From the sequence record MN850609.1: a stretch of DNA of 64,000 nt. One strand, written 5' to 3'. Made by a program: the position numbers and the translations under genes. The notes under the pieces were generated by a model. The model was not told where the DNA came from, did not search any database, and saw only the letters and a program-made list of their open reading frames with translations. Positions 203 to 409 of the stretch are shown here, piece by piece. The first letter of the stretch is position 1; every line of letters starts with the position of its first letter. This stretch comes from Escherichia phage dhaeg.

Positions 203-371
203 AACAAGAAACCGGGTCGCTACCGGTAAGTCGTCGGACTGAAGTTCCCTGAATAAGACCCGACTTTAAGGCGTACATGAGTTCCTCTTAAAGTCCCTTA
301 TCTCACAGCTGAAACGGCGCACCGAACACTTGCCTAGCAGGTGGAACCCCGACAAGGTTACCCTAGGTTAA
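203..371 (+). ncRNA. Candidate small stable RNA co-transcribed downstream of the tRNAs
   Basis: No ORF, GC-richer than surroundings, lies between tRNA-Arg and an intrinsic terminator; T4 encodes stable RNAs of unknown function next to its tRNA cluster. Confidence 0.3.
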
Positions 372-400
372 AGGCCCTTCCGAAAGGTTGGGCCTTTTTT
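372..400 (+). terminator. Rho-independent terminator
   Basis: AGGCCC...GGGCCT hairpin followed by TTTTTT. Confidence 0.65.
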
Positions 401-401
401 G

Positions 402-409
402 TATAAATA
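402..409 (+). promoter_or_regulatory. T4-type late promoter box TATAAATA
   Basis: Exact TATAAATA about 29 nt upstream of the Ip-like gene start. Confidence 0.5.

Follow-up and report, generated by a model that had tools for sequence, protein, structure and literature searches.

A probable ortholog of the T4 stable RNA rnaD and a separate trailer and terminator cassette behind the tRNA genes of a T4-like Escherichia phage

What kind of sequence separates the last tRNA gene of a T4-like phage operon from the operon terminator? The question is raised by the beginning of a 64-kb stretch of phage DNA (the whole of which is called the window here), whose sequence is 100% identical to that of Escherichia phage dhabil (Dhakavirus, Tevenvirinae, T4-like) and is read on the minus strand of the dhabil record. 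The window opens with the 3' part of tRNA-Met (1-40, from Rfam and the dhabil map), followed on the plus strand by tRNA-Asn (48-122, ARAGORN and Rfam) and by tRNA-Arg (127-202, anticodon UCU, CCA encoded; ARAGORN, and 63.8 bits in the Rfam tRNA model). An earlier note on this DNA had described about 170 nt of non-coding, relatively GC-rich sequence between tRNA-Arg and an intrinsic terminator, possibly equivalent to the stable RNAs found beside the tRNA genes of T4. The description proved accurate: the stretch from 203 to about 370 (168 nt) contains stop codons in all six frames, its longest ORFs being shorter than 50 aa and overlapping the tRNA, and GC content, calculated in 100-nt windows, is 0.48-0.54 across 151-400 as compared with 0.31-0.42 over the next 300 nt (roughly 50% for the ORF-free stretch of about 168 nt from tRNA-Arg to the terminator). 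The region 203-400 is made up of two modules: 204-323 is an RNA gene of 120 nt, and 324-400 is a trailer and terminator cassette. In the dhabil record the locus is placed between trna.2 and e.8, the same position as in T4 when the maps of both phages are compared, and a promoter-like site is found about 80 nt upstream of tRNA-Met. Cotranscription of the RNA gene with the tRNAs is plausible because a simple consensus scan of the plus strand from the tRNAs to position 370 detected no terminator-like site, and tRNA-Arg is presumably its upstream neighbour on the same transcript.

The first module is, with a probability of roughly 0.85, the ortholog of T4 rnaD (the species 2 stable RNA) and would, by analogy with T4, give a stable RNA product, which this probability covers too. 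In the T4 annotation (NC_000866), tRNA-Arg is followed by rnaD (119 nt) and rnaC (139 nt), with e.8 about 280 nt beyond, and the record describes rnaD as "small, stable RNA; species 2 RNA" and rnaC as "species 1 RNA", in line with what the earlier note had said of T4. When compared with the stable RNAs of the T4 tRNA cluster, positions 204-323 (plus strand) align with rnaD from the first to the last base, with the same 5' and 3' boundaries; in both phages the gene starts 2 nt past the CCA of tRNA-Arg and finishes with the common 3' terminus GGCGCACC. The cores of the two RNAs are near-identical, with 91.5% identity over the 5' core of about 46 nt (204-249) and 94.4% over the 3' core of 18 nt (306-323), whereas the centre (250-305), which holds a distal arm of another sequence type, is only 64% identical. 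As a comparison, the adjacent tRNA-Arg gene (127-202), a different allele from that of T4, shows 70% identity, and the e.8 CDS 83%. Covariance model R1, for which 12 homologs were used, scores 125.5 bits in the window (E about 8e-30), as its sole match in the 64 kb, and 121.2 bits in T4 rnaD; 25 homologs were recovered with this model. The likeness to T4 comprises the position after tRNA-Arg, the length (119 vs 120 nt), the predicted fold, and the trailer with its terminator. On the other hand, T4 rnaD precedes rnaC and the rnaD of the window does not, rnaC being absent anywhere in the 64 kb. The proposed equivalence with a T4 stable RNA accordingly stands for 204-323 and falls for the rest of the roughly 170-198 nt, which is trailer and terminator, and the T4 set is represented by rnaD without rnaC. 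The element is of a known kind, decades old in T4, and the copy described here is unannotated.

Accumulation as a discrete stable RNA has been reported for T4 only, in the GenBank note and in a study that classes RNAC and RNAD as late RNAs and in which northern riboprobes were directed to RNAC and ssrA, not to RNAD (PMC9697503). The roles of RNAC and RNAD have been stated to be unknown (PMC3014915, PMC9697503), and none of the papers found in the literature from 2010 to 2025 assigns a function to rnaD, the classical T4 papers being outside the reach of this search. The only functional hint for rnaD is a single convergent SNP, mapped by its authors to this gene, in three lines of the T4-like phage BW1 adapted to host ECOR34, an adaptation that came with an increase of the virulence index from 0.17 to 0.98 (PMC12685909). 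The position of this SNP is ambiguous, given that the order of rnaC and rnaD is reversed in the same paper; judging by the coordinates given, it probably falls in the distal arm of rnaD (PMC12685909).

The secondary structure was derived from three sources, namely RNAalifold (8 sequences), pair counts (22 distinct sequences) and the window's own MFE structure, and all of them agree. The predicted fold is a 5' hairpin, P1, followed by an irregular rod, P2-P5, that is closed by the 3' end of the RNA; all coordinates are on the plus strand. P1 (211-227; RNAalifold, MFE) pairs ACCGG at 211-215 with CCGGU at 223-227 around the loop GUCGCUA, and is invariant across the 22 distinct homologs save for an A-U to G-U change at its base in three of them. 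P2 (RNAalifold, pair counts, MFE) joins the 5' strand GUCGUCG (230-236) to the 3' strand CGGCG(C)AC (315-322), in which C320 is bulged; its seven pairs are all invariant, and it is predicted by energy, not by covariation. Above P2 lies an invariant internal loop, GACUGA/GAAA (237-242/311-314; RNAalifold, MFE and column conservation), which by eye fits neither the K-turn nor the sarcin-ricin consensus. The rod continues with P3 (243-246/307-310), P4 (250-257/297-305) and P5, the distal variable arm (262-271/286-295). The terminal base of the 3' segment 311-323, C323, is C or A among the homologs. Changes on both sides of a pair were observed in nine pairs, all of them within P3 (one), P4 (four) and P5 (four), and 93.4% of the cells in the consensus pairs are paired, vs 32-47% when the 3' partners are slid. 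In T4-type sequences P3 has a second register, and its covarying pair is broken in 3 of all 22 distinct sequences. Covariation cannot be used to test P1 and P2 because they never vary and no distant homologs were found; both helices are predicted from energy together with conservation. The MFE structure of the window coincides with the consensus, the folding energy of this single sequence being unremarkable (z = -1.06); as the homologs are closely related and mosaic, shuffle-based significance is inflated. In the MFE structure of the 198-nt region, the 5' region of rnaD also pairs over a long distance with the trailer, at the small hairpin H2 described below; this pairing was discarded, as it is not consistently kept in other phages.

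The distribution of variation along this fold is very uneven. Columns 5-40 of the alignment (36 consecutive positions) are invariant in 22 of 22 distinct sequences. For the distal arm, at least three sequence types that are unrelated to one another can be distinguished (T4-like, JS98/dhabil-like and IME341/ZN18-like), each of which folds into the same rod when folded separately, and arm types and flanks are combined mosaically. What is new in the present analysis is the covariation-supported fold, the division of rnaD into about 65 nt of invariant core and a distal arm that can be replaced, and the dissection of the locus into rnaD, rnaC and trailer/terminator modules.

The second module has its own conservation pattern. 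A consensus fold of nine trailers places, within the trailer as a whole (324-370, plus strand), an invariant 7-bp hairpin, H1 (CACUUGC/GCAGGUG, 327-343, also seen in the alignment), an invariant single strand, GAACCCCGACAAGG (344-357), and an optional small hairpin, H2 (360-368). The intrinsic terminator announced in the earlier note is found directly afterward (371-400, plus strand; sequence and folds): GGCCCUUCC-GAAA-GGUUGGGCC at 373-394 forms the stem (373-381/386-394) and its GAAA loop, and U6 follows at 395-400. Two U-U mismatches in the stem explain why the simple consensus scan did not pick up this terminator; stem changes among homologs preserve the pairing. The whole cassette, 324-400, aligns with the T4 sequence downstream of rnaC, and the trailer is present in 706 phage records. 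Its upstream neighbour is rnaC in T4 and an ORF in VR26 and pEC-M719, and in Erwinia phage Cronus it stands ahead of an rnaC-like RNA; VR26 and Cronus carry it without rnaD. Copies are located at 2018-2083 of the VR26 locus (L005), at 2497-2567 of the Cronus locus (L004) and at 1619-1684 of a further locus (L006). These varied contexts in T4, VR26, pEC-M719 and Cronus show that trailer and terminator are a separate cassette, which is probably a processing and termination module. In T4, RNase III is reported to cut just 3' of species 1. Three extra loci with the trailer motif in IMG/VR were rejected as chance matches in GC-rich coding DNA.

Together with rnaC, the two parts of the region make up three independent modules: rnaD, rnaC and the trailer/terminator. 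In the window the 3' end of rnaD is joined to the sequence that comes after rnaC in T4 (AACACUUGCC...), with 2 nt between rnaD and the trailer, and rnaC therefore behaves as a clean insertion or deletion of 146 nt. Other phages have separated rnaD from its neighbours: a 345-nt ORF stands between tRNA-Arg and rnaD in RB69, and in pEC-M719 there are ORFs on both sides of rnaD, that between rnaD and the terminator being 384 nt long (the ORFs that part rnaD from tRNA-Arg in these two phages measure 240-345 nt). In VR26, an ORF for a T5orf172/MUG113 (GIY-YIG-like) nuclease-like protein (L005, 1397-2056) takes the place of rnaD, of which the last 10 nt, ACGGCGCACC, are left at the 3' end of the ORF, and in T4 segB adjoins tRNA-Arg. 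The rnaD locus is a hotspot for mobile nuclease genes, as the VR26 ORF and segB illustrate, and the near-identity of the cores could come partly from recombination or co-conversion at a homing-endonuclease locus. In IME341, the intact rnaD is separated from tRNA-Arg by another copy of the gene that is decayed and has an internal deletion (L003, 1438-1503), which suggests a past tandem duplication.

The second stable RNA of this T4 sub-cluster, rnaC, is a tRNA-like molecule that carries a canonical T arm, and no significant sequence similarity connects it with rnaD; the possibility that rnaD is a decayed rnaC copy was discarded, since their local alignment is not above that of shuffles (171/1000). 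The two genes also differ in distribution: Kosakonia phage Kc304 carries a homolog of T4 rnaC (L024, 1299-1438; 82% identity) in a genome without rnaD in the fetched region, and therefore rnaC is more widely distributed than rnaD. Just before this homolog there is an unannotated tRNA-like sequence (L024, 1219-1290), with 36 bits in the Rfam tRNA model and nothing by ARAGORN. In Cronus, a stretch of about 220 nt between two tRNA-Met genes (L004, 2570-2790) looks structured, is unannotated and has no Rfam match; it ends in a canonical T arm (GGGUUCGAGUCCC) and may be an rnaC-like stable RNA.

The rnaD 5' core was found once per genome in 734 GenBank phage records, with at least 90% identity in 730 of them. 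All carriers are coliphages of the T-even type or their relatives from Shigella, Yersinia, Salmonella, Citrobacter and Serratia, and the phages fetched for covariance-model matches belong to Tequatrovirus, Mosigvirus, Dhakavirus and Gaprivervirus. A scan of IMG/VR with the core returned 12 loci, all T-even-like; another, of metagenomes and anchored on P1, gave 26 loci, nine of which are true close homologs and the others chance matches. The fetched tRNA regions of Salmonella phage S16, Kosakonia phage Kc304 and Erwinia phage Cronus yielded no rnaD with the covariance model, even with its filters off. From these absences and the loss in VR26 it follows that rnaD is dispensable. Annotation of the gene is uneven: rnaC and rnaD are annotated in some records (RB27, RB9), and the dhabil record has no annotation at all at the locus. 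Many records of T-even-type phages have CDSs labelled "hypothetical protein" drawn across the rnaD sequence, probably spurious ORF calls on an RNA gene. An annotation fix is therefore at hand for dhabil and the many T-even-type records in which rnaD is either missing or given as a hypothetical protein.

Several other identities were considered for the region and rejected. A coding gene at rnaD is contradicted by the stops in six frames and by the lengths among homologs (116, 117, 119, 120, 121 and 123 nt), which are not all multiples of three. ARAGORN predicts no tRNA or tmRNA in 203-400, and Rfam, run over the window in both gathering and E-value modes, reports tRNAs alone, with no match in 203-400 at E ≤10; neither T4 rnaD nor T4 rnaC has an Rfam family. 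A tRNA or tRNA-like identity for 203-400 was discarded, no cloverleaf being recognised by ARAGORN or by the Rfam tRNA model, and the reading of rnaD as a degenerate copy of a T4 tRNA fell as well, with no significant similarity to T4 tRNAs and a marginal one to the tRNA-Ser region (12/300 shuffles). P1, with its 5-bp stem and 7-nt loop, weakly resembles the T arms of tRNAs, the rnaD model with filters off giving 14 bits on those of tRNA-Met. The 7-mers shared with 16S rRNA are within chance expectation. Mimicry of a host sequence was likewise rejected, as blastn found nothing at E ≤1 among 5,426 complete E. coli genomes, and no exact match to the rnaD core was present in 185,579 bacterial and archaeal genomes.

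The biogenesis of the RNA can be proposed from T4 and from tRNA processing in E. coli. A single transcript would carry tRNA-Met, tRNA-Asn, tRNA-Arg and rnaD and stop at the terminator (373-400). Endonucleolytic maturation of the tRNA-Arg 3' end would also free the 5' end of rnaD, whose 3' end would result from a cut in or before the trailer and subsequent 3' trimming back to P2. By protecting the 3' end, P2 would allow rnaD to accumulate as a stable RNA of about 120 nt. As for its function, the best fit for an invariant hairpin-helix-loop core with an exchangeable arm is a protein-binding RNA, and we tentatively infer that the core may be a sequence-specific platform for a host or phage protein, rnaD being a decoy, a sponge or a component of an RNP, and the swappable distal arm would then tune it. 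Rod-shaped, protein-binding small RNAs such as 6S RNA and Y RNA/YrlA serve purely as functional analogies: their 5' and 3' regions also form a long stem, the internal loop is conserved and the distal part varies; they differ in that rnaD has no Rfam match, the sole YrlA match being on the tRNAs at 8-78. Such an RNA would be dispensable in the laboratory and yet modulate the efficiency of infection on particular hosts. A more specific version, which we consider doubtful, is that rnaD is a decoy or sponge setting infection efficiency by host, with the core (P1, P2 and GACUGA/GAAA) binding a host factor or an RNA-directed defence protein and the recombining arm serving as a specificity module in an arms race; it would explain both the three swappable arm types and the convergent ECOR34 SNP. 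Natural variants are available for testing the function, among them this phage without rnaC, VR26 without rnaD and several phages with swapped distal arms.

Spacers of tRNA operons can survive processing, and a somewhat doubtful alternative to the protein-platform reading is that rnaD acts in cis, as a processing or stability element of the tRNA operon that guards the precursor against 3' exonucleases or positions RNases for the maturation of tRNA-Arg (in T4, of rnaC), the stable fragment being a by-product with no function in trans. The adjacency of rnaD to the 3' side of tRNA-Arg, common to T4 and the window, agrees with such a role, as does the closing of its 3' end by P2. It is harder to reconcile with the ORFs that part rnaD from tRNA-Arg in RB69 and pEC-M719, and from the terminator in the latter, or with VR26, which manages without rnaD; moreover, 36 invariant bases are not needed for mere protection.

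In E. coli, the tRNA-operon spacer 3'ETS-leuZ acts as an sRNA sponge. The region studied here is also non-coding, located 3' of the last tRNA of an operon, ended by the operon terminator and, as proposed above, freed by tRNA processing; there is no sequence relation, and rnaD is much larger and highly structured. It seems unlikely that rnaD, the trailer (344-357 plus the U-tail) or both pair in the same manner with host or phage RNAs, possibly via Hfq. The invariant single strand preceding an intrinsic terminator and the independent travelling of the trailer as a cassette speak for base pairing, whereas most of what is conserved in rnaD is helix or short loop, E. coli genomes offer neither similarity nor extended complementarity at the blastn level, and the T4 trailer is probably removed in processing. 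Sequence and folds show a terminator with a U-tail and a conserved single strand in 324-400, a candidate for a 3'-end-derived sRNA of the Hfq type, and the cassette might, as a separate and rather doubtful possibility, be an independent 3'-derived regulatory RNA.

That rnaD is an inert 3' external transcribed spacer, degraded after processing and conserved merely through recent ancestry and recombination, is quite improbable. The weak folding z-score and the narrow taxonomic range of the family would fit an inert spacer; against it, rnaD of T4 bears the annotation of a small, stable RNA and is classified as a late RNA in infection, compensatory changes keep P4 and P5, and neither the adjacent tRNA gene nor the e.8 CDS comes close to the conservation of the core.

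The mobile nuclease genes of the locus suggest an explanation at the DNA level, in which the invariant blocks would not be RNA features but would serve, within a hotspot of mobile elements, as target or co-conversion sequences of homing endonucleases or as joints of recombination. It draws on segB beside tRNA-Arg in T4, on the VR26 T5orf172/MUG113 ORF that replaced rnaD down to its last 10 nt and on the mosaic flanks and distal arms; it is nevertheless very unlikely, leaving unexplained the compensatory changes in P4 and P5, the stable RNA of T4 and the strand-specific organisation of hairpin and terminator. Least probable is a riboswitch-like leader or attenuator controlling read-through into the ORF at 438-1061, since the order of a structured conserved RNA, an intrinsic terminator and an ORF is offset by the lack of an Rfam match, by a late-promoter-like TATAAATA between terminator and ORF, and by T4, in which the 139-nt rnaC stands between rnaD and the terminator, no such ORF follows and the RNA accumulates as a discrete species.

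This TATAAATA (402-409, plus strand), read from the sequence directly past the terminator and 29 nt upstream of the ORF, is a putative late promoter element that matches the -10 consensus of T4 late promoters. The ORF itself (438-1061) encodes 207 aa, belongs to phrog_2280, contains a linker rich in Pro, Ala and Lys, and has no counterpart in T4; other phages, RB69 and pEC-M719 among them, have ORFs with its N-terminus, MKTYxEFLNE, beside rnaD or the trailer. The hairpin that follows the ORF (1064-1085) is terminator-like on the minus strand only. Finally, sigma-70-like promoter matches are found at 1122-1149 (TTTACA...TACTAT) and 1452-1480 (TTTACA...TATTAT), before e.8 and the next ORF, respectively.
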